Positions 5,169 through 22,440 of a DNA stretch of 32,000 bases are shown piece by piece. Every line of letters begins with the position of its first letter. Position 1 is the first letter of the stretch. This DNA is from Paracoccus suum. Its GTDB lineage: Bacteria; Pseudomonadota; Alphaproteobacteria; Rhodobacterales; Rhodobacteraceae. The notes beneath the pieces were generated by a model that saw only the letters and a list, made by a program, of their open reading frames with translations, was not told where the DNA came from and ran no database searches. The stretch covers positions 1,080,001 through 1,112,000 of the forward strand of contig NZ_CP030918.1 in the NCBI RefSeq assembly GCF_003324675.1, written 5' to 3'. The position numbers and the translations under genes were made by a program.

Positions 5169-6416
5169 TTAGGCGGGCCGCTGTGGAATCTGCAAGCGCG
5201 CCATGTAGAATCCATCCATCCCGCCAAGCTCGGGCCAGTAATCGGGGCGCAGGCGGATGCCGCCCTCGGGCGTGATCCATCCCGGCTCGATCCCCAGGCG
5301 GGCGGGATCAGGTTGCTCGACCGTCAGCCCCGGGTGGCGGGCGAGGGCAGCGGTGATCTGGTCCTCGCCCTCGTCAGTCAGCAGCGAGCATGTGGAATAG
5401 ACCAGCCGCCCGCCCGGAGGCAGCAGGGCGATGGCGTGATCGAGGAGTCGAGCCTGCAGTTCGACCAGCGGGGCGAGGCCGCTGCCGTCGCGGATCGACG
5501 GCAGTTCCGGATGGCGGCGAATGGTGCCGGTGGCAGTGCAGGGCGCGTCTAGCAGGATCGCGTCAAGCGTGCCATCGGGCTGCCACTGCAAGGCATCGGC
5601 GGTGACCATTTGCGCGGTCAGGCGGCACCGGTCGAGATTTTCTGCCAGCCGGCGCAGGCGCGGGGCCGAGATGTCGACCGCTGTCACCTCGGCGCCGGCT
5701 GCGGCCAGTTGAAGGGTTTTGCCGCCGGGTGCGGCGCAAAGATCGGCGATTCGCTCGCCCGCCTTGGGTTCCAGCAACAGGGCCGGCAAGGCGGCCGCGG
5801 CGTCCTGTACCCACCACGCGCCAGTTGAAAAGCCCGAAAGGGCCGAGATCTGCGCGCCCGATTGCAGCCGGAACGAGCCGGTGGGGAGGACTTCGGTCCC
5901 CTCGATCGCGGTGCCCGGCTTGCGCGCGGTCAGGTCGAGTGGCGCCGCGCGCTCATGTGCGGCCTCGATCGCATCGGCGGCGCCGCTGCCCCATGCGGTG
6001 ACGATTGGGCCGCGCAACCAGGCCGGCATGCGGCGCGGCGCGGCCGCATCCCACGCGGTCCGGCCCTCCGCTGCACGGCGCAGGACGGCGTTGACCATTC
6101 CCGCGGCGGCGGCGCCCTTTTGCCCCTGCTTGCGGGCCAGGGCCACGGCCTCGCTGACAACCCCGTGTGGCGGCGCGTCAAAGCCCAGCATCTCGACCGT
6201 GGCGAGGACCAGCAGGTCGGCCACCGCCGGGCGGGGCCGGCGCGGCAGCAGTGGTGTGAGCACGGCTTCCGCCCGCCCGCGCAGCCGTAACGCCGCCGTC
6301 GCAAGGCGTCGCGCTCGCGCGCGCTCCGCGCCCTCGGCTCGCGCCGCCGCAGCGCTGTCGAGCATGTCGTCGAGGCCGAGGCCCTCGCGCACGCCGGCCA
6401 TCAGCCACAAGGCCAT
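5169..6416 (-). CDS. rsmB: 16S rRNA (cytosine967-C5)-methyltransferase RsmB/Sun
   Basis: C-terminal SAM-dependent m5C methyltransferase motifs (DLCAAPGGKT, ILLDAPCTATGTIRRHPE, LVYSTCSL) and an N-terminal NusB-like region. Start is uncertain: ATG 6416 is the minimal choice, and the frame stays open upstream to 6959. Confidence 0.8.
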   Translation of the reverse strand: MALWLMAGVREGLGLDDMLDSAAAARAEGAERARARRLATAALRLRGRAEAVLTPLLPRRPRPAVADLLVLATVEMLGFDAPPHGVVSEAVALARKQGQKGAAAAGMVNAVLRRAAEGRTAWDAAAPRRMPAWLRGPIVTAWGSGAADAIEAAHERAAPLDLTARKPGTAIEGTEVLPTGSFRLQSGAQISALSGFSTGAWWVQDAAAALPALLLEPKAGERIADLCAAPGGKTLQLAAAGAEVTAVDISAPRLRRLAENLDRCRLTAQMVTADALQWQPDGTLDAILLDAPCTATGTIRRHPELPSIRDGSGLAPLVELQARLLDHAIALLPPGGRLVYSTCSLLTDEGEDQITAALARHPGLTVEQPDPARLGIEPGWITPEGGIRLRPDYWPELGGMDGFYMARLQIPQRPA

Positions 6417-6897
6417 GGCGCGGGGATCGGCCGCCGCGCCGCGGGGCAGCGGCGGGACTTGCAGGGCATTGCGCGGGGGTGTGTCGGTTTGTGCAGGTTG
6501 CGTCGGCTTGCGCGCCGCGGGTCTGTCGGTGCGATTCTTCGCGGGGGACGCGCCTCCAGTCGCCGCCGCGTCGCGGTGGTCCGAACCGGCCGGGGTCTCT
6601 TGCGGGGACCGAGCCGGACTTGCGACGCGATCATGCGCGGACGAGCCAAGGCCCCGCGCCGGCGCTGCTGCGCCCGGCTCTGCCACGGCGGGTGCGGCGG
6701 GCTTTCGCTCCGCGGCGCGGCGAGGGGTGGCGCCGGCCCCGATGCCGACGCGAACGGTTGTGCCCTCGGGCGGGGCGGGGCGGCCCGCCGATGGCGGCGG
6801 CCCGCTGACCTCTGCCTCGTCCTTGTTCAAAACCCTGCCTCCGCTTAAGTTGAAAGTGTATTGTCCCTGCACCCAGCCCGACTGTCGAGGTCGAACC

Positions 6898-7119
6898 ATG
6901 GCCGAAGGCCACCCAAGCCCTGATCTATCCCCGACCGTGACCGACGCGGGCGCCTCCAACGACCTGCCCCCCGCCGCTCAGCGTGCGCTGGCAGAAGCCG
7001 CGGCGCGGCGCCGTGCAGCAGTGCCGCTGGCGCTGCCCGAGGAGTTTGGCGGCCGCGATGGCCCCGAGCCGGTGCGTTACGGTGATTACGAGCGCAAGGG
7101 CATCGCCGTCGATTTCTGA
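6898..7119 (+). CDS. DUF1674 (SDHAF4-like) small protein
   Basis: Last 73 codons of ORF 5719..7119, from the ATG at 6898. The C-terminal ...GGRDGPEPVRYGDYERKGIAVDF is the DUF1674 signature. Confidence 0.75.
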   Translation: MAEGHPSPDLSPTVTDAGASNDLPPAAQRALAEAAARRRAAVPLALPEEFGGRDGPEPVRYGDYERKGIAVDF

Positions 7120-7143
7120 CGCCGCCGAGGCCAAGGCCGGGCG

Positions 7144-8010
7144 CTAGATCCCAAGCACGTCGGCCACGTCGTATTCCCCCGGACCCTTGTCCTGGCCCCA
7201 CAGTGCGGCGCGGAGTGCGCCGCGGGCAAAGATTGCGCGGTCCGTCGCGAGATGGCGGAGCACGACGCGCTCACCCTCGGTCGCGAAGATCACGTCATGC
7301 TCGCCCACGACATCGCCGCCGCGGACCGAGGCGAAGCCGATACTACCGGCCGCCCGCGCGCCAGTCATGCCGTCGCGCGCCGGCGTGCGCAGATCGGCGA
7401 GGCTGTCGCCCCGGCCCTCGGCCGCCGCCTCGCCCAGCATCAGCGCGGTGCCCGACGGGGCATCGACTTTCATGCGGTGATGCGCCTCGACGATCTCGAT
7501 ATCCCAGGCGGTGCCGAGGGCGGCTGCGACCTTGCGCGTCAGCGCTGCAAGCAGGTTGACCCCGAGGCTCATGTTCCCGGCGCGAATGATCGGCGCGTGG
7601 CGCGCAGCGGGGCGCAGGCGGGCCAACTGTTCGGCGGTAAAGCCGGTGGTGCCGATGACATGCACGGCGCGCGCCTGCGCGGCCAGCGTCGCAGTCGCAA
7701 GGCTGGCCTCGGGGGCGGTGAAATCCAAGATCGCCTGGGCGCGGGCGATGGCGCTGACGGCGTCGTCGGTGACGGGCACCCCGACCGGCACGCCGCCCAT
7801 GGCGGCACCCACGTCCATGCCGACCCACGGATGGCCCGGCCTCACGAGGGCGGCGACGAGGCGGCAGGCGTCGCTGTCCAGGACGGCGCGGACCAGCATC
7901 TGGCCCATGCGCCCGCTGGCGCCCGTGACCACGACCCCCGGCAGCGGTGCCGCGATCTGCGGCTGGTCGCGCCCGGCCTCTTCCGCCGGGGCGGTGCCCT
8001 GATTGCCCAT
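7144..8010 (-). CDS. dapB: 4-hydroxy-tetrahydrodipicolinate reductase
   Basis: C-terminal 288 aa of ORF 7144..8646, from the ATG at 8010. Motifs: [11 protein letters not shown] (NAD(P) binding), [16 protein letters not shown] (DapB signature). Confidence 0.9.
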
Positions 8011-14824: not shown

Positions 14825-16854
14825 TGCCTACGGACCTGCTGCGCGAAGTCTGGGGCTTTGACGCCTTCCGCCCCGGCCAGCAGGAGATCGTCGAGGCGGT
14901 CGCGGCCGGCCGCGACGTGCTGGCGATCATGCCGACCGGCGGCGGCAAATCGCTGTGCTTCCAACTGCCCGCCCTCATGCGGGATGGGGTGACGCTGGTC
15001 ATCTCGCCGCTGATTGCCCTGATGCGCGACCAGGTCGGGGCGCTGAAGGCCTCGGGCGTTGCTGCTGGTGCGCTGACCTCTGGCCATACCGAGGCCGAGA
15101 GTGACGAGGTCTTTTCCGCCCTGCGCGACGGCTCGCTGAAGCTGCTCTACATGGCGCCTGAGCGCCTTGCCGCCGGCGGCACGCTGCCGCTGCTGCGCCG
15201 CGCCGGGGTCAGCGCGATCGCCGTCGACGAGGCGCATTGCGTCAGTGCCTGGGGCCATGACTTCCGCCCCGACTACCTGCGCATCGGCGAGTTGCGCCGC
15301 GCGCTGGGGGTGCCGCTGGCCGCCTTCACGGCGACCGCCGACGCCGAAACCCGCGGCGAGATCATCGCCCGCCTGTTCGACGGCGCCGTCCCACAGGTGT
15401 TCCTGCACGGCTTTGACCGGCCAAACATTCACCTCGCCTTTGCGGCCAAGGACGGCCCGCGCGCGCAGATCCTGGATTTCGCCGCCGCGCGCGCCGGCCA
15501 GTCGGGCATCGTCTATTGTGCCACACGCGCCCGGACCGAGACGCTGGCTGCCGCCCTGAATGCCGCCGGCCAGCCGGCGATCAGCTATCACGGCGGCATG
15601 GAGGCCGAGGCGCGGCGTGAGGCCGAGGGCCGCTTTCAGCGCGAGGACGGGCTGATCGTCGCCGCGACCGTCGCCTTTGGCATGGGCATCGACAAGCCTG
15701 ACATCCGCTGGGTGGCCCATGCCGACCTGCCCAAGTCCATCGAGTCCTACTATCAGGAAATCGGTCGCGCGGGCCGCGACGGCGCGCCGGCCGAGACGCT
15801 GACGTTGTTCGGCACCGACGACATCCGCCTGCGCCGCAGCCAGATCGACGAGGGGCTGGCCGATGACAGCCGCAAGTCGGCCGACCATGGCCGTCTGAAC
15901 GCCCTGCTGGGACTGGCCGACGCGCCGGGCTGCCGCCGTCAGGTCCTGCTGCGCTATTTCGGCGAGGACACCGCGCCCTGCGGCAATTGCGATCATTGCG
16001 ACCGCCCGCCCGAACTGTGGGATGCCACCGAGGCGGTGCGCAAGGCGCTCTCCGCCATGCTGCGCAGCGGCGAGTGGTTCGGCGCGGGCCATGTCATCGA
16101 CATCCTGACCGGCTCGGCCACCGAAAAGGTCAAGGCGCGCGGCCATGACCAACTGCCGACCTTTGGCGTCGGGCGCGATCTGTCTAAGGGCGAATGGCAG
16201 GGCGTGATCCGCCAGATGCTGGGGCGCGATCTCTGCCGCCCCGACCCCGAGCGGCACGGCGCGCTGCGCATCACCCCCGACGCCCACCCCGTCCTGCGGG
16301 GCGAGACCAGCGTCTCGCTGAAACGCGACGCGCTGGCCAAACGCGCGCCCCGCCCCGAGCCGCGCGCCATGGTGGCCGAGGAGGACGCGGGCCTGCTGTC
16401 CGCGCTGAAGGCCCGGCGGCGCGCCCTGGCCGAGGCGCAGCGCGTGCCGGCCTATGTCGTCTTTCCGGACAAGACCCTGATCGAGATGGCCGAGCGCCGC
16501 CCGCAGGACCTCGACGACATGGCCCGCATCCCAGGCGTCGGCGCGAAAAAGCTGGAAGCCTATGGCGCGGCCTTCCTCGAGGTTATCGCGGGCGAGGCCC
16601 CGGCCGTCCACCCCGCCCGGCGCAAACTGGCCGGCCGCCCCGAAGGCGCCCTCGCCGACCGGCTGGAGGCCGCGCAGACCGCGCTGCTGCGGGGCGCGGA
16701 CGGAACGGGCAAATACATGGCCTGCACGCGGGGGATGCTCGCGGCTGTGGCGAAGGCGCGACCGAGGGACTTGGCGGCGCTGGAGCGGATTATCGGGGAG
16801 GCGCGGGCCGAACGGTTCGGGGCGGTGTTTTTGGGGGAGATTGGGGAGGGGTAA
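14824..16854 (+). CDS. recQ: ATP-dependent DNA helicase RecQ
   Basis: ATG at 14824 inside ORF 14155..16854, overlapping the yggT TGA by 1 nt. Motifs: FRPGQQEIV, MPTGGGKSLCFQLPAL, DEAHCVSAWGHDFRPDY, zinc finger CGNCDHC, HRDC region. Confidence 0.95.
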   Translation: MPTDLLREVWGFDAFRPGQQEIVEAVAAGRDVLAIMPTGGGKSLCFQLPALMRDGVTLVISPLIALMRDQVGALKASGVAAGALTSGHTEAESDEVFSALRDGSLKLLYMAPERLAAGGTLPLLRRAGVSAIAVDEAHCVSAWGHDFRPDYLRIGELRRALGVPLAAFTATADAETRGEIIARLFDGAVPQVFLHGFDRPNIHLAFAAKDGPRAQILDFAAARAGQSGIVYCATRARTETLAAALNAAGQPAISYHGGMEAEARREAEGRFQREDGLIVAATVAFGMGIDKPDIRWVAHADLPKSIESYYQEIGRAGRDGAPAETLTLFGTDDIRLRRSQIDEGLADDSRKSADHGRLNALLGLADAPGCRRQVLLRYFGEDTAPCGNCDHCDRPPELWDATEAVRKALSAMLRSGEWFGAGHVIDILTGSATEKVKARGHDQLPTFGVGRDLSKGEWQGVIRQMLGRDLCRPDPERHGALRITPDAHPVLRGETSVSLKRDALAKRAPRPEPRAMVAEEDAGLLSALKARRRALAEAQRVPAYVVFPDKTLIEMAERRPQDLDDMARIPGVGAKKLEAYGAAFLEVIAGEAPAVHPARRKLAGRPEGALADRLEAAQTALLRGADGTGKYMACTRGMLAAVAKARPRDLAALERIIGEARAERFGAVFLGEIGEG

Positions 16855-16881
16855 GGGCGCCGCATAGCCCCGGCGCATCAG

Positions 16882-17097
16882 TTGGAACAGAGCAGCAACC
16901 GGGCCGAGACGAACCTAGTGCTGCGGGCCTTCATGCACGCGCGGCTGTCGGGGCTGCTGCGTGGGGGCGAGACGATGGACTACCTTTTCCACCGGGAAAA
17001 AGAGGGGCTGGACGGCCGCAAGCCGGGCTGGGGCGAGGCCCAGAAGGATTTCGAGGACCTGGGTCCCGACGCCGCCCGGTTGCTGAGCGACGAGTAG
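16882..17097 (+). CDS. Hypothetical small ORF (GC-rich, no recognisable family; may be a gene remnant)
   Basis: 71-codon ORF with a TTG start and internal ATGs, in host-like GC directly left of the low-GC islet. No convincing RBS seen. Confidence 0.15.
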   Translation: MEQSSNRAETNLVLRAFMHARLSGLLRGGETMDYLFHREKEGLDGRKPGWGEAQKDFEDLGPDAARLLSDE

Positions 17098-17243
17098 GGT
17101 GTGCCGATCGGGGAGGAGAAACGCTCGGGGCGGGCGGATACGATTGCGTGGTTAAGGGGGAGATAGGCGGAGTTTTTGTCTGCCATTGGCCGTGAGCAAG
17201 CCATACCTTACGGCTGCCTATGCTGTTTTGCTCTTCTGCCTCG

Positions 17244-18788
17244 CTATAGATCAACCAGAGCTTCATCTGGCACTGGCACCGCGCCTAGAAATTCTTTGCC
17301 CTCCGGAGTGAGGTTATCAAAAGTTCGCCGTTGAAATATTATTTCGCGATCTGGATGGTCTTGGTCAACCTTCCCCAAATTTGGGCTCGCGCTTGCGGCT
17401 GCCCACGGCAATATGTTACCTTTATCATCTTTCATGCGAGACTTGGAAAATATCCGAGAGAAGCGCACGTGGGTTATTCCTGTAAATTGGCGAAACTCCA
17501 CTTTCTCAGGTGATGGCGATGATTGATCTATATCTATAGAGTCGGGATACAGATCGGATGTAAAGCTCTTGGCATACGGCTCCAGGTAAGTTACTCGACG
17601 AATACCTGCTGCAACGATATGCTTAGAGCAGTTGTGGCATGGGAAGGTTGTGCAAAAGAGTTCGCCATCCTTAAGTGTGCTGCCGTTGCGAGCTGCAGAA
17701 GTGAGTGCGCTCATTTCTGCATGAACAGCGCGTCCGTACTCCAATGAGTCCATGATCTGCGAGTCTTTGAGCGGAGCATCCTTCTCGTCGAGCATTTTGC
17801 TCGGAAATTGCGTATCGGACTGATGCTCATCCTTCATATAAGGCTTCAGGAGGCTTACAATCTCAAGAACCATCTGCCTCTTTCTTACTGTATTTATATC
17901 CTTTCCTAACGCAACGTCCCGAGCGTCAATTCCATCTTCTGGCCAGTAGGTTCCCCCGAAAGCTTTTGGTGCCTCATTGTATCCGGAGGCAATCATTGTG
18001 CCCTCAACGGCAACTACTGCACCGACCTGCCTAGCAGTATCGATGGAAGCAAGGGAAGTTTGATATGCTATATTCTGAAAAAATTCAGACCTGGTAGGGG
18101 ATATTTTGAAGTTTCCGAACAGGCCAAAGAAAAATCTATTTACTATTTCGCGCGATAATTTTGGTTGAGAGGGGTCGATTATGACATCGGCAAGGGGGAA
18201 TACTTTGCTCACTCGTTGGCCATGCCTCGCGCTTGCCTCATCATCGTCTTGGTTTATCAAGTCTTGTGCTGTTTTGTTCCAAGACGCTTGGCGGGGAGCT
18301 TCTGCATGATCATCTGCAATCCTCCGAGACAATATCGAAAGTCGTTGATCTAATGGAATATGACACGACACTAAGATGAATTGCTGACCGTAAACCGCTT
18401 GCAGTGCTTCCGCTTCTTCCTTCCTTTTGATTTGATCGACAATGTATGCTCTCCGGGGCGCTGGAGAGTTTTCGTCGCCAGTGAATTCACGCCTGATTTG
18501 TCTTATTCTTGAAATGGCGTATGCAGCAAAGATTGCATCATTCTCAGATTTTTCTTGCACATCGTTGCAAGCCGCAATGTATGTTTGGTATCTTTTCTCT
18601 ATTGGATTCTCAACGATATCGAAGTTAAGCCGCTCTTCTTTAACTAAATCTGTTAGTTTTATGTGGGAAGTTAGGTAGTTCAGCGAGCTGAGGCATTGCG
18701 TAAGGATTTCAACCACGTCCTTGGTTTCCACACCCATCCTGCCGACTAGGCCAATTACCAGCTCGGCACCCTTTAACTGCGTTAGCAT
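17244..18788 (-). CDS. Kinase-like / CDA-fold zinc deaminase fusion; candidate anti-phage dCTP deaminase (nucleotide-depletion defence)
   Basis: ORF 17244..18830 (TTG at 18830). ATG at 18788 (MLTQLKGAELVIGLVG...) is preceded by GGGAGGG. HAE motif at 17715-17723 (CAT GCA GAA) and PCHNC at 17628-17642 were verified on the DNA. The N-terminal GLVGRMGV is a degenerate P-loop lacking GK[ST]. Overall layout matches my recollection of defensive dCTP deaminases. Confidence 0.75.
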   Translation of the reverse strand: MLTQLKGAELVIGLVGRMGVETKDVVEILTQCLSSLNYLTSHIKLTDLVKEERLNFDIVENPIEKRYQTYIAACNDVQEKSENDAIFAAYAISRIRQIRREFTGDENSPAPRRAYIVDQIKRKEEAEALQAVYGQQFILVSCHIPLDQRLSILSRRIADDHAEAPRQASWNKTAQDLINQDDDEASARHGQRVSKVFPLADVIIDPSQPKLSREIVNRFFFGLFGNFKISPTRSEFFQNIAYQTSLASIDTARQVGAVVAVEGTMIASGYNEAPKAFGGTYWPEDGIDARDVALGKDINTVRKRQMVLEIVSLLKPYMKDEHQSDTQFPSKMLDEKDAPLKDSQIMDSLEYGRAVHAEMSALTSAARNGSTLKDGELFCTTFPCHNCSKHIVAAGIRRVTYLEPYAKSFTSDLYPDSIDIDQSSPSPEKVEFRQFTGITHVRFSRIFSKSRMKDDKGNILPWAAASASPNLGKVDQDHPDREIIFQRRTFDNLTPEGKEFLGAVPVPDEALVDL

Positions 18789-18810
18789 TTTTTTTGCGAC
18801 CCTCCCAAAA

Positions 18811-18841
18811 ACTATACCCACCCGCCTCAAGATGTGGTCAG
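18811..18841 (-). promoter_or_regulatory. Weak candidate promoter for the deaminase gene
   Basis: Minus strand reads CTGACC (18836-18841), a 19-nt spacer, then TATAGT (18811-18816), about 22 nt upstream of ATG 18788. The spacer is longer than optimal. Confidence 0.2.
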
Positions 18842-18867
18842 ATCAGGTAGTGTTGTAGGAGGACACC

Positions 18868-19065
18868 ATGCGTAACAACTTGGACGCAACTGAAAAATTT
18901 GCGTTTGGTAGGTCTCTGTATGAGACGAGCAAGCGATTCGATACGCTCAGTGAAGGAAAGCGCGCTGACTACACTCGCTCGTTCTCGGCTGACAACAAGG
19001 TCAACTCGTGTGAAGCTACTCAAAAGGCGCCGGAACCAGTAGGGAGGCAGGTTCCGGCCAAATGA
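18868..19065 (+). CDS. Hypothetical small hydrophilic protein (65 aa), divergent from the deaminase gene
   Basis: ATG at 18868 preceded by TAGGAGGACACC (AGGAGG with a 6-nt spacer). Intermediate GC and no recognisable family. Two hairpins lie downstream (19030-19057 and 19066-19079). Confidence 0.35.
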   Translation: MRNNLDATEKFAFGRSLYETSKRFDTLSEGKRADYTRSFSADNKVNSCEATQKAPEPVGRQVPAK

Positions 19066-19101
19066 CTCAGGACTGAGTTGGGGTGAGCCCTGTCGTGACC
19101 C

Positions 19102-22100
19102 TCACCCCTGCAACGTCCTAACTCCCACATCCCCGTCCCCGCGGGACTGAATCGCGGCCACCGCGGCGATCGCTCCGGCAGCGGTCGTGAAATAGGGGAT
19201 CTTAGCGTAAAGCGCGACCGAGCGGATGTCGCGGGAATCTGCGATGGCCTGGGCGCCCTCGGTGGTGTTCAGGACCATCGCGATGTCGTCGTTTTTCAGG
19301 CGGTCGACGATGTTCGGGCGACCTTCATAAACCTTGTTGACCAGTTCCGCCTCGACATCCGCGCCGCGCAGGAAATCGGCGGTGCCCTTGGTGGCGATCA
19401 GGGTAAAGCCCATCCCCGAAAGGTCGCGCATGGCGGCGGCCATCTCGGACGTCTTGTCGCTATCCTTGACCGAGACGAAGACGCGCCCCGATTCGGGCAG
19501 GTGGGTGCCGGCGCCCATCTGCGCCTTGAGGAACGCGCGGGCGAAGTTGCGGTCCCAGCCCATGACCTCTCCGGTGGAACGCATTTCCGGCCCCAGCAGC
19601 GTGTCGACGCCGGGGAAGCGGGCGAAGGGCAGCACGGCCTCCTTGACCGAGAACCACGGGGTGACCGGGTCCGCCAGGGTCAGCGGGTCGGCGTAGGGCA
19701 AGGGCGTGTCGGGGCCGACGCCCGCGGGATAGGCGGGGCGCAGCGGAAAGTTCGACAGCGGCTCGCCGGCCATCAGCCGGGCGGCGATGCTGGCGAGGGC
19801 GCTGTCGGTGGCCTTGGCGACGAACGGCACGGTGCGGCTGGCGCGGGGATTGACCTCCAGCACGAAGATCTCGCCGTCCTTGATCGCGAACTGGACGTTC
19901 ATCAGGCCGACGACCCGCAGCGCGCGGGCCATGGCGACGGTCTGACGCTTGAGCTCCTCGACCGTCGCGGCGTCCAGGGTGTGCGGCGGCAGCGAGCAGG
20001 CGCTGTCGCCGGAATGGACCCCGGCTTCCTCGATATGTTCCATGATGCCCGCGACATGGACCGCCTCGCCGTCGCTGAGGGCGTCGACGTCAACCTCGAT
20101 CGCGCCCGACAGGTAGCTGTCCAGCAGGACCGGGTTGTCACCCGAAACATGCACGGCCGTGGTGATGTAGCGCCGCAGCTGGGCCTCGTCGCGCACGATC
20201 TCCATCGCCCGGCCGCCGAGGACATACGAGGGGCGGATCACCAGCGGGTAGCCAACGGTCTCCGCGATGCGCAGCGCCTCGTCCGGGCTGCGGGCAATGC
20301 CGTTGACCGGCTGCTTGAGGCCAAGGCGGTTCAGAAGTTGCTGAAAACGCTCGCGATCCTCGGCGAGGTCGATGGCATCCGGCGTGGTGCCGAGGATCGG
20401 AATGCCCTCCGCCTCAAGCGCGTTGGCGAGCTTCAGGGGCGTCTGGCCGCCGAACTGGACGATGACGCCATGCAGGGTGCCGTTCTGCTGCTCGACTCGC
20501 AGGATTTCCAGGACGTGCTCGAGCGTCAGCGGCTCAAAGTAAAGCCGGTCCGAGGTGTCGTAGTCGGTCGAGACAGTCTCGGGGTTGCAGTTGACCATGA
20601 TCGTCTCGTAGCCGGCGTCGGTCAGCGCATAGCAGGCGTGGCAGCAGCAGTAGTCGAACTCGATCCCCTGGCCGATGCGGTTGGGACCGCCGCCAAGGAT
20701 GACGACCTTCTTGCGGTCGCTGGGGCGCGATTCATCCTCGACCTCGCCCATCGCCGGGGCTTCGTAGGTCGAATACATGTAGGGAGTCTGGGCCTCGAAT
20801 TCCGCCGCGCAGGTGTCGATGCGCTTGAACACGGGGGCGACGCCCGCGCGCCGGCGTGTGCGGCGAACCTCGGCCTCGGGCGCGTCGGTCAGATGCGCGA
20901 GGCGGGCATCGGTAAAGCCCTGCGATTTCAGGCGGCGCAGGCCGGTGGCGTCGGTCGGCAGGCCTTGGTGGCGGACCTCATGCTCGGCATCGACGATCTC
21001 GCGCAGGCGGGCAAGGAACCAGGGGTCCCAGGCAGTGATGGTGTTGATCTCGTCATCTGTGAAGCCGGCGCGCATCGCCTCGGCAATGACGCGGATGCGG
21101 TCGGGGGTCTGGCGACTGAGCGCGGCGACGAAGGCGGGACGGCCCTCCTCGGCCGCGCCCTCGACGGCGATTTCGTCGAGACCGGTGAGGCCGGTCTCCA
21201 TGCTGGCGAGGGCCTTTTGCAGCGATTCGTGGAAGCTGCGGCCGATGGCCATGACCTCGCCCACGGACTTCATTGCGGTGGTCAGCTCGGGCTTGGCGCC
21301 GGGAAATTTTTCAAACGCAAAACGCGGGATCTTGGTCACGACATAGTCGATGGACGGCTCGAAACTGGCCGGGGTGACGCCGGTGATGTCGTTGTCGAGC
21401 TCATCGAGGGTGTAGCCGATGGCAAGTTTTGCGGCGATCTTGGCGATCGGAAAGCCGGTCGCCTTGGAGGCGAGGGCTGAACTGCGGCTGACGCGTGGGT
21501 TCATCTCGATCACGACCATGCGGCCGTCGGCGGGATTGATGGCCCATTGCACGTTGCTGCCGCCGGTCTCGACCCCGATCTCGCGCAGCACGGCGATCGA
21601 GCCATTGCGCATACGCTGGTACTCGCGGTCGGTGAGCGTCAAGGCCGGGGCGACGGTGATGGAGTCGCCGGTATGCACCCCCATTGGGTCGACGTTCTCG
21701 ATGGCGCACACGATGATGGCGTTGTCCGCCTTGTCGCGCACGACCTCCATCTCGAACTCTTTCCAGCCGAGGAGGGATTCGTCGACGAGAATCTGGCCCA
21801 CCGGCGAGGCATCGAGGCCGCTGCGGCAGATCGCCTCATAGTCGTCACGGTTGTAGGCAACGCCGCCCCCGGTGCCGCCGAGGGTAAAGGCCGGGCGGAT
21901 AATCGCGGGCAGTCCGACGACTTCGATGGCTTCAAGCGCAAGGCGGACGCCGGCCGAGACGTCGAAGCGGCCGTCTGAACGCTTGGGTGCCGTGATGATG
22001 GTCGCGCGCGGGTTTTCCAGCCCGATGCGGTCCATAGCCTTGCGAAAGAGGCCGCGGTCCTCGGCCATTTCGATGGCTTCGCGCTTTGCCCCGATCAACT

Positions 22101-22440
22101 CGACATTATAGCGGTCAAGAACGCCCATGTCAGCGAGGGCCAAGGCAGTGTTCAGCGCGGTCTGCCCGCCCATGGTCGGCAGCAGTGCGTCCGGGCGTTC
22201 GGCCGCGATGATCTTTTCCACGATCTCGGGGGTAATCGGCTCGATATAGGTGGCATCGGCTAGGCCAGGGTCGGTCATGATGGTCGCCGGGTTCGAGTTT
22301 ACCAGAATGACGCGATACCCCTCTTCCCGCAGGGCCTTGCAGGCTTGGGCGCCAGAGTAGTCGAACTCGCAGGCCTGCCCGATGACAATGGGACCAGCGC
22401 CGATGATGAGGATCGAGCGGATATCGGTGCGTTTCGGCAT
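19102..22440 (-). CDS. carB: Carbamoyl-phosphate synthase large subunit
   Basis: 1112-aa ORF with full-length CarB similarity ([29 protein letters not shown], duplicated ATP-grasp halves, MGS-like C-terminus). Confidence 0.97.

Follow-up and report, generated by a model that had tools for sequence, protein, structure and literature searches.

Directly downstream of carB in Paracoccus suum lies a gene of low GC content which an earlier note, made from the sequence alone, had taken for a candidate anti-phage system in which a kinase-like domain is fused to a zinc deaminase. What does this gene encode, does it belong to the host backbone, and what would keep a potentially toxic enzyme in check? 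We addressed these questions in a window of 32,000 nucleotides (nt) of the P. suum genome (assembly GCF_003324675.1, contig NZ_CP030918.1, positions 1,080,001 to 1,112,000 of the forward strand), and all coordinates given for P. suum are positions in this window. Our results suggest that the gene encodes an anti-phage deoxycytidine triphosphate (dCTP) deaminase of the AvcD/DcdV family, and that it is carried on a two-gene cassette together with a small, divergently oriented gene that is functionally linked to it. We place the probability of this overall reading at roughly 0.8. The deaminase is of a known kind, while the two-gene layout is probably a new variant.

Anti-phage dCTP deaminases deplete dCTP upon infection, and both of their domains are required (Tal et al., Nat Microbiol 2022; bioRxiv 10.1101/2021.04.26.441389). 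Escape mutants of phage T7 in gp5.7 suggest that the shutoff of host transcription is what is sensed (Tal et al., bioRxiv 10.1101/2021.04.26.441389). In Vibrio cholerae, the enzyme AvcD is inhibited post-translationally by AvcI (also DifV), a labile RNA that is encoded directly 5' of avcD and on its strand, is co-transcribed with it and is lost once transcription stops (bioRxiv 10.1101/2021.03.31.437871; PMC10511110). AvcI was first taken for an open reading frame (ORF), and it remained active after its apparent ORFs had been destroyed; AvcI RNAs vary in sequence and keep their position, and the unrestrained enzyme is toxic in both Vibrio and E. coli (bioRxiv 10.1101/2021.03.31.437871; PMC10511110). 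Homologous systems have been reported to protect against phages in E. coli (bioRxiv 10.1101/2021.04.26.441389) and in Vibrio (bioRxiv 10.1101/2021.03.31.437871; PMC10511110).

The deaminase and its family

The six-frame listing contains a minus-strand ORF at 17244..18830 that would encode 528 amino acids (aa) from a TTG, and the earlier note had described an ORF of 514-528 aa here, which is indeed present. The likely start is the ATG at 18786-18788, which lies behind a GGGAGG Shine-Dalgarno (SD) sequence; the TTG start of the 528-aa version is unsupported. Read from this ATG, the gene (17244..18788 on the minus strand, stop included) encodes 514 aa and is 100% identical to GenBank AXC49178.1, which is recorded for Paracoccus suum as “hypothetical protein DRW48_05310”. 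The RefSeq entry WP_162784680.1 begins at the next ATG (18735-18737) and has 495 aa. This shorter call loses the conserved first strand of the N-terminal domain (E9/G13/G16), so that the family alignment favours the 514-aa start. Residue numbers refer to the 514-aa product unless noted, and motif coordinates were derived in the 528-aa frame.

Several profile libraries place this protein in a catalogued defence family. The PADLOC dCTPase model PDLC02373 matched residues 18-496 (E=2.7e-132, 440.8 bits), and the score with NF041025, the NCBIfam equivalog named “anti-phage dCTP deaminase”, was 406.5 bits (cut-off 400) over model positions 1-434 of 437. Pfam detects the deaminase domain alone (PF00383, residues 251-416, E=1.9e-15). 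Among 1802 homologues, the name “anti-phage dCTP deaminase” is already in use for those from Roseobacter, Sulfitobacter, Ruegeria and Thioclava with 50-56% identity, and alignments with the plasmid members from Vibrio and E. coli cover the P. suum deaminase from end to end. PHROG 9198, a family of “unknown function”, also matches it near end to end (17247-18788, E=1.4e-79), which indicates that the family sits unannotated in the phage protein catalogue. Models of housekeeping deaminases scored poorly: ComEB (TIGR02571), which aligned over residues 367-421 only, reached 52.9 bits where its cut-off is 219.45, and TadA and RibD reached about 13-15 bits, far under their cut-offs. The architecture described by Tal et al., a kinase-like N-terminal domain and a C-terminal zinc deaminase in a protein of more than 350 aa, is that of the 514-aa product. 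These comparisons support the P. suum deaminase as an ordinary member of the catalogued anti-phage dCTP deaminase family, newly recognised in this species. The earlier note had proposed this family and allowed for a divergent relative; the membership stood, and the divergence did not, even though NF041025 is passed narrowly.

To describe the protein further, we used an alignment of 22 homologues, which also served as input for an AlphaFold2 (AF2) model (predicted local distance difference test, pLDDT, 83.9; predicted template modelling score, pTM, 0.81). The model and Foldseek searches gave a kinase-like fold followed by one like that of deoxycytidine monophosphate (dCMP) deaminases. The first of these domains covers about aa 1-225 (18114..18788, minus strand) with a pLDDT above 90 over most of its length, in good agreement with the N-terminal domain of about 240 aa that had been noted before. 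Its matches in the PDB are 3h0k and 3lw7, which are adenylate-kinase-related (E=2e-5, TMt 0.63-0.68), and the kinase domain of PFKFB3, which makes it a P-loop-kinase-like domain. The P-loop segment itself, as read from the sequence, is ELVIGLVGRMGVE (18726..18764, minus strand) and is non-canonical, lacking GK[ST]. The earlier note was correct about a Walker-A-like segment without the GK[S/T] lysine, and put it slightly off, at about 18720-18752. It had also called the P-loop degenerate, and we found this to be a trait of the whole family and not a sign of divergence: GK[ST] occurs in 0 of 22 members, which instead share the motif E-x3-G-x2-G-x2-G-x-[DE] (E9-x3-G13-x2-G16-x2-G19 in P. suum), with E9, G13 and G19 invariant. 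Members from E. coli, Vibrio and Zymomonas plasmids and from a Burkholderia phage are likewise non-canonical, and G19 alone is invariant across them. Mutations in this motif have been reported to matter, as G29A/C30A abolishes defence by the E. coli AW1.7 protein (Tal et al., bioRxiv 10.1101/2021.04.26.441389) and S52K abolishes toxicity of the V. cholerae protein (bioRxiv 10.1101/2021.03.31.437871; PMC10511110). We equate the P. suum motif with the mutated one as a region, not residue by residue, and by this analogy the lysine-less P-loop domain need not be a dead one.

The zinc deaminase domain follows at about aa 230-420 (17529..18101, minus strand; PF00383), and its motifs HAE (17715-17723) and PCHNC (17628-17642) lie exactly where they had been reported. 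H356, A357, E358, P383, C384 and C387 are invariant in the 22 homologues and in a wider set that includes plasmid and phage members. By sequence and fold its matches are dCMP deaminases, and those of phage T4 (Cd, 1vq2), S. mutans (2hvw), human (DCTD, 2w4l) and PBCV-1 (bifunctional dCMP/dCTP deaminase, 7fh4) are the best structural matches to about residues 230-420. They share the fold and the HAE...PCxxC zinc site. In contrast to the P. suum protein, they are single-domain enzymes of 140-190 aa, without the kinase-like domain, the insert and the C-terminal extension described below. A search of the PDB returned no full-length relative with a solved structure. The dCTP deaminase of E. coli AW1.7, which we compared by its description, is closer, as it likewise joins a kinase-like N-terminal domain to a C-terminal zinc deaminase, and the zinc ligands and the N-terminal motif are conserved. 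It differs in having 576 aa and in being described as a single gene, whereas the 514-aa protein of P. suum is accompanied by a divergent small gene. Enterobacterial plasmid members of the family are about 29-33% identical to the P. suum deaminase.

Two further regions are specific to the family. Between the GYNE strand (17973-17984) and HAE lies an insert of 83 residues (17724..17972, minus strand), close to the 85 or so estimated earlier. It contains nine invariant residues (P274, K275, G278, G279, Y281, W282, D288, R290 and D297), and two stretches of it, 275-299 and 344-353, are modelled by AF2 with low confidence. The C-terminal extension, about aa 421-514 (17247..17528, minus strand), had been seen as a tail without recognisable matches. 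We found it to be conserved in the family out to the invariant E482, with F432, F435, G437, I438, F447, K453 and G457 also invariant, and AF2 models it as structured, with strands and with helices at 440-447, 478-491 and 495-501. In the 532-aa V. cholerae AvcD, the substitutions K511E and Q514R near the C-terminus make the enzyme insensitive to AvcI (bioRxiv 10.1101/2021.03.31.437871; PMC10511110). In light of these mutations, it is plausible by analogy that the C-terminal extension of the P. suum deaminase is a regulatory surface.

A divergent small gene upstream of the deaminase

The start of the deaminase gene is separated from carB by 313 nt, and within this interval, on the plus strand, lies an ORF of 65 aa (18868..19065) that is preceded by an AGGAGG SD sequence. 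A collection of 15 billion proteins does not contain the P. suum protein, and this ORF is therefore unannotated in P. suum. With a single exception, every locus of the clade at 53% identity or more has a homologue of it, divergent from the deaminase gene and upstream of it. These loci are the contig of the closest relative (L135, deaminase 91% identical to that of P. suum), L001 and L002/L003 (74% identical in L001 and 71% in L002), Pseudooceanicola (L004), Roseovarius (L005), Marivita (L006), a Rhodobacteraceae metagenome-assembled genome (MAG; L007), Litoreibacter halocynthiae (L009, 55%) and an IMG/VR contig (L098). The exception is a Paracoccaceae MAG (L008, OY759767.1), in which the deaminase at 5995-7347 lacks its first 60 or so residues and no small ORF is present. 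The ORFs upstream of it look transposase-like, and this is probably a decayed copy.

The small ORF evolves like a coding sequence. All nine copies examined (9/9) have an ATG with a purine-rich SD sequence 5-8 nt upstream, and the frames stay open at just 20-40% identity. The proportion of nonsynonymous differences is below that of synonymous differences (pN<pS) in 36 of 36 pairs, and close pairs have dN/dS values of 0.22-0.32 with changes mostly at third positions. In the protein, M1, F11, F13, D34 and R37 are invariant. A word-indexed search returned 18 clusters of related proteins, and a full hidden Markov model (HMM) search of 1.84 billion representatives returned 55 at E<=1e-3, mostly proteins of 43-80 aa that match from end to end, with the consensus [FY]-x-F-[TS]-x-S-F-x2-T-[LIV]-x-[RK]-[FY]-[ED]-x-L-S-x-G-K-[KR]-A-D-[YF]-x-R. 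Three distant members that were located independently are all divergent and lie 78-85 nt upstream of a deaminase. In the loci that were measured, the two starts are about 50-86 nt apart, and the partner proteins have 47-65 aa. We did not find any match to the small protein in Pfam, PADLOC, NCBIfam or PHROG apart from one at chance level (PADLOC PtuB, E=0.034), nor did we detect a DNA-binding domain or a match to a known antitoxin family. Judged by these patterns of conservation, the small ORF is a genuine conserved protein gene, and a functional link to the deaminase is very probable. The earlier note had suggested that this ORF might take part in control, a suggestion that is strengthened by the comparative evidence.

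Is such a partner general in the family? A scan of a genome collection with the single protein returned seven loci, P. suum not among them, which is a narrow taxonomic base for a survey. The family-wide survey of upstream regions covered 107 loci from metagenomes and IMG/VR with 30-55% identity to the query, a sample made up of the best 80 of at least 574 matches and of 44 viral contigs. We counted divergent ORFs of 40-110 aa with an ATG and an SD sequence that start within 200 nt of the deaminase start, and used shuffled sequences as controls. Such ORFs were present in 52 of the 107 loci (49%), compared with 8% in shuffles, while small ORFs on the same strand were not enriched (9% versus 7%). 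The surveyed divergent ORFs form several sequence clusters, which were picked by BLASTP similarity and carry some bias towards amino-acid conservation; among them pN<pS holds in 63 of 64 pairs, and variability is lowest at codon position 2, higher at position 1 and highest at position 3. When these clusters (c1-c6) were compared with the family of the Paracoccus clade using hhalign, all probabilities were below 8%, and homology was undetected, as it was between the clusters themselves. As far as these alignments tell, the upstream position is conserved and the sequence is not.

Other layouts occur in more distant members. On an E. coli plasmid (NZ_CP148280.1, L141, 4.6 kb), an annotated small ORF (705-887) lies 5' of the deaminase on the same strand, as in the AvcI-type layout, and a Zymomonas plasmid (NC_015715.1, L140) has a divergent ORF of 99 aa (1091-1390) with a CxC...CxH motif. 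In the Burkholderia phage phiE094 (L143, 1-3045), the family member is the 570-aa gp47, whose gene comes immediately after two genes for AAA-family ATPases that share its strand. This context differs and is possibly that of a multi-gene system.

The position of the small gene invites another explanation, namely that the locus is a type III system like AvcID, in which an RNA from the 280 nt upstream of the deaminase is the inhibitor, either a deaminase-sense RNA antisense to the small ORF or the mRNA of the small ORF, and any peptide is secondary. The V. cholerae inhibitor occupies a like position and works untranslated, and there are signs of conservation at the nucleotide level. Between the two divergent starts lies a 79-nt spacer (18789..18867), presumed to hold overlapping promoters and 5' untranslated regions (UTRs). 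In a comparison of the window with L135, identity reaches 91% in this spacer and 90% in the first 123 nt of the small ORF, against 81% in the deaminase coding sequence and 65-69% in other spacers. At third codon positions, the small ORF has changes at 8 of 41 sites and the deaminase at 230 of 515 (p=0.0016), and pairs among L004, L006 and L007 show a like, weaker trend in synonymous conservation. This points to a constraint beyond coding, whether from promoters, from UTR overlap or from RNA. Overlapping promoters and 5' UTRs within a spacer of about 50-86 nt would explain most of the conservation and of the folding signal described next.

Also in favour of an RNA inhibitor, the fold of the 18789-19065 minus strand is better than that of shuffled sequences (z=-2.64), while that of the plus strand is no better (z=-0.02). 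However, the minus-strand signal comes partly from a terminator-like hairpin of carB and partly from a hairpin in the spacer. The former (19020..19057, minus strand), located 3' of carB and present in the minus-strand minimum free energy (MFE) fold, consists of CCGGAACC, a 12-nt loop and GGTTCCGG, followed by the U-run CCUUUUGA; it shares sequence with the 3' end of the small ORF, which is not conserved, and a simple terminator scan missed the hairpin because its loop exceeds 8 nt. The spacer hairpin is formed by 85 nt of the minus strand (18789-18873) with an MFE of -28 kcal/mol (z=-2.8), and in it CCUCCU, the complement of the SD sequence of the small ORF, pairs with GGGAGG of the deaminase. 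It could mask the ribosome binding site of the deaminase if the transcript starts upstream of it. Its z-score is -3.6 in L135 and about zero in more distant loci, and the hairpin owes its existence largely to the presence of two SD sequences on opposite strands. As it is significant in the window and L135 alone, we rejected it as a clade-wide element for SD masking. Another inverted repeat, GGGGTGAG/CTCACCCC, extends across the stop codon of carB within 19064-19124 and is not kept in L135.

Searches for a conserved RNA gave little. RNAalifold found zero consensus pairs on either strand of ten clade members, and an Rfam scan of 16500-19500 (E<=10) returned chance-level matches only, Rfam being without an AvcI-like family. 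A scan for sigma-70 promoters and terminators was uninformative for this alphaproteobacterial region. The coding signature of the small ORF, with its open frame, its ATG and SD sequence and its pN<pS at 20-40% identity, would not be needed by an element that acts as RNA only and argues against a purely RNA element, and same-strand small ORFs are not enriched in the family. We consider a type III system of this kind quite unlikely.

The cassette and its site at carB

The two genes occupy an insert of about 1.93 kb (17165..19100) at a variable site between carB and the side of orf71 and recQ, as delimited by DNA comparison and GC content. P. suum DNA is homologous to that of P. endophyticus and P. 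contaminans as far as the carB stop codon (19100-19102) and again from 17162-17167 onwards, about 77 nt beyond the stop of the deaminase gene. GC content is 0.38-0.54 inside the insert and 0.61-0.83 outside it. The deaminase ORF has a GC content of 0.468, with 0.46 at third codon positions (GC3), compared with 0.66 and 0.86 for carB, a GC content of 0.70 for recQ and a genome GC3 of about 0.8-0.86. The low-GC islet of the earlier note was thereby borne out (0.47 in the ORF, 0.66-0.70 in the flanking genes), and so was its view of the gene as accessory. The deaminase has no counterpart at the carB loci of sister species: the CarB proteins of four other Paracoccus species are 86-90% identical, and a deaminase lies beside carB in none of them. 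Two of these species carry other cargo at this site. In P. endophyticus, the carB stop codon is followed by an unlike low-GC insert of 1.1 kb (L136, 9340-10457), and in P. contaminans by an unlike one of 1.6 kb (L137, 9339-10959); these have a GC content of 0.44-0.56 and contain ORFs of 200 aa and 130 aa without assigned function. In P. denitrificans (L139), the site is empty. From these genome comparisons, the 1.93-kb insert is accessory rather than syntenic core, and the 3' end of carB is a cargo hotspot in Paracoccus that may also be a defence hotspot. We looked for direct repeats, a tRNA gene and an integrase at the insert edges and found none of them.

The cassette is also found in unrelated surroundings. 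Pseudooceanicola, Marivita and the Rhodobacteraceae MAG have about 2.0 kb in common at 88-90% DNA identity between unrelated flanks, and this shared stretch holds the small ORF and the deaminase and nothing else. In every genus that we compared, the GC content of the cassette is below that of its surroundings. Relatives of the deaminase also occur on 48 plasmids and in phiE094, a temperate phage. Taken at the level of DNA comparison, the two genes travel together as a unit of about 2 kb.

The proximity to carB raises the possibility that the enzyme is a housekeeping one, either a ComEB/Dcd-like dCMP deaminase or a deaminase of the tRNA or riboflavin type, kept beside a pyrimidine gene for metabolic reasons. 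The deaminase lies directly downstream of carB not only in P. suum, but also in L135, L001, L002 and Litoreibacter halocynthiae, and its catalytic domain is nearest to dCMP deaminases. On the other hand, the ComEB, TadA and RibD models remain below their cut-offs, so that the housekeeping hits the earlier note had named as evidence against itself did not appear, and a protein of 514 aa with a kinase-like domain that is part of the defence-family models is not of this type. The low GC3, the missing gene at the sister Paracoccus sites and the unrelated contexts of other clade members also speak against it. We regard the housekeeping reading as hardly credible, and as refuted as far as sequence analysis permits.

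A different role for a mobile toxin would be that of an addiction module, in which toxin and antitoxin serve to stabilise the insert and have no anti-phage role in P. suum. AvcD is toxic when its inhibitor is lost, and the cassette is small and mobile. However, homologues protect against phages in E. coli and Vibrio, and addiction would be of little benefit to a 2-kb chromosomal insert that has no mobility genes, which makes this role very unlikely.

The flanks of the insert belong to the host. The core gene carB (19102..22440, minus strand) encodes the large subunit of carbamoyl-phosphate synthase, with 85-91% identity to Paracoccus CarB proteins, and its stop codon forms one edge of the insert. 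On the other side, between recQ and the insert, lies orf71 (16882..17097, plus strand), a conserved high-GC small ORF of 71 aa that belongs to the host backbone. By tblastn it is 65-69% identical to sequences in P. endophyticus and P. contaminans, its homologues sit at the far side of the inserts of these sister species, and matches are also present in L002 and L135. The P. suum copy is without a Pfam match, and in P. contaminans the homologous stretch is inside a gene of 175 aa with a recorded match to BrnA_antitoxin of Pfam. The L002 contig (GCA_046289095.1, JBKBVZ010000023.1) is 2.3 kb long and labelled “Candidatus Paceibacteria bacterium”. It has carB, the small ORF, the deaminase and orf71 in the same order as P. 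suum, and the C-terminus of its CarB is about 79% identical to that of P. suum; it is probably a misbinned contig of Rhodobacterales.

Control of the deaminase

By homology, the deaminase would be present in the uninfected cell and held in check. When a phage stops host transcription, a short-lived inhibitor would vanish, and the freed enzyme would convert dCTP and dCMP to deoxyuridine triphosphate and monophosphate, emptying the deoxycytidine pool and stalling the replication of phage DNA. Since toxicity of the unrestrained enzyme has been seen in both Vibrio and E. coli, some inhibitor is to be expected. By analogy with AvcI, the product of the small gene might be this labile inhibitor, a protein counterpart of the RNA antitoxin, to which we would give almost an even chance. 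That the transcript of the small gene, or an RNA overlapping it, is the inhibitor appears improbable.

Three kinds of system invite comparison. AvcID of V. cholerae has a toxin of the same family and a small 5' element that varies in sequence and is stable in position, and the expected logic is alike, with a labile inhibitor that is lost upon host shutoff. It differs in that AvcI is encoded on the same strand and is untranslated, whereas the P. suum element is on the opposite strand, has a coding signature and gave no consensus RNA structure in the clade alignment. In Clover (PMC12265719), the dGTPase CloA depletes deoxynucleoside triphosphates and is restrained by CloB, the product of an adjacent gene, which limits self-toxicity. 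The proteins are unrelated, however: CloB, a nucleotidyltransferase, produces an inhibitory nucleotide, while the P. suum partner has no enzymatic domain. As in type II toxin-antitoxin systems, the gene for a small protein adjoins that of the toxin, but here it is divergent and not in an operon. Our literature search found no description of a protein partner, or of a structure, for the dCTP-deaminase family, which is no proof of absence.

The deaminase might also be a self-contained single-gene system, with the small gene merely a transcriptional regulator or a passenger. PADLOC models a single protein and Tal et al. describe a single gene, a small divergent gene whose promoter overlaps that of its neighbour is a classic arrangement of regulator and target and the spacer here is 91% conserved, and about half of the sampled family loci are without a divergent ORF by the criteria used. 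Against this, the pairing is seen in all examined clade loci except L008, the two genes are transferred jointly as a 2-kb unit, the small protein has no detected DNA-binding domain and is modelled as a helical hairpin, and the 1.93-kb insert offers no other candidate for the inhibitor that a toxic enzyme needs. We find the single-gene view rather doubtful, and favour the reading in which the small gene is functionally linked to the deaminase.

Several points weigh against this two-gene reading. With regard to the deaminase, the NF041025 cut-off is cleared by just 6.5 bits, deaminase activity and phage protection are assigned to the P. suum protein and its close relatives by homology only, and no known defence gene lies beside the cassette within the window, so that support from a “defence island” is lacking. 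With regard to the small gene, AF2 models its product as a bare two-helix hairpin with moderate confidence (pLDDT 69), a divergent layout is atypical for toxin-antitoxin pairs, and a small divergent gene could be a transcriptional regulator instead. The spacer and the synonymous sites at the 5' end of the small ORF are unusually conserved, which is compatible with an element that acts as RNA. Lastly, the locus sample of the survey is skewed towards relatives of the query.

Taking these points together with the survey, we tentatively propose, at somewhat less than even odds, that a large branch of the AvcD/dCTP-deaminase family may be controlled by a fast-evolving, divergently encoded, labile protein inhibitor of 45-65 aa instead of the AvcI RNA, which would be lost upon shutoff by a phage, that unrelated families of small proteins fill this position in other branches, and that the 2-kb cassette is mobile. 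The deaminase itself adds little to what was known, as it extends a catalogued defence family to Paracoccus, although it does correct the annotations of a GenBank “hypothetical protein” and of a truncated 495-aa RefSeq call. The added value is in the conserved, unannotated partner gene and in the anatomy of the cassette and its hotspot, and the 3' end of carB in Paracoccus is worth mining further. How defence by dCTP deaminases is silenced and triggered is understood for the Vibrio-type RNA antitoxin only, while about half of the sampled loci have an unannotated small protein gene at the position of AvcI. If this protein is indeed the safety catch of the enzyme, tools for finding defence systems should model two genes, a single toxin family would use either RNA or protein inhibitors, and a compact 2-kb cassette would be at hand for probing how the loss of host gene expression is sensed.

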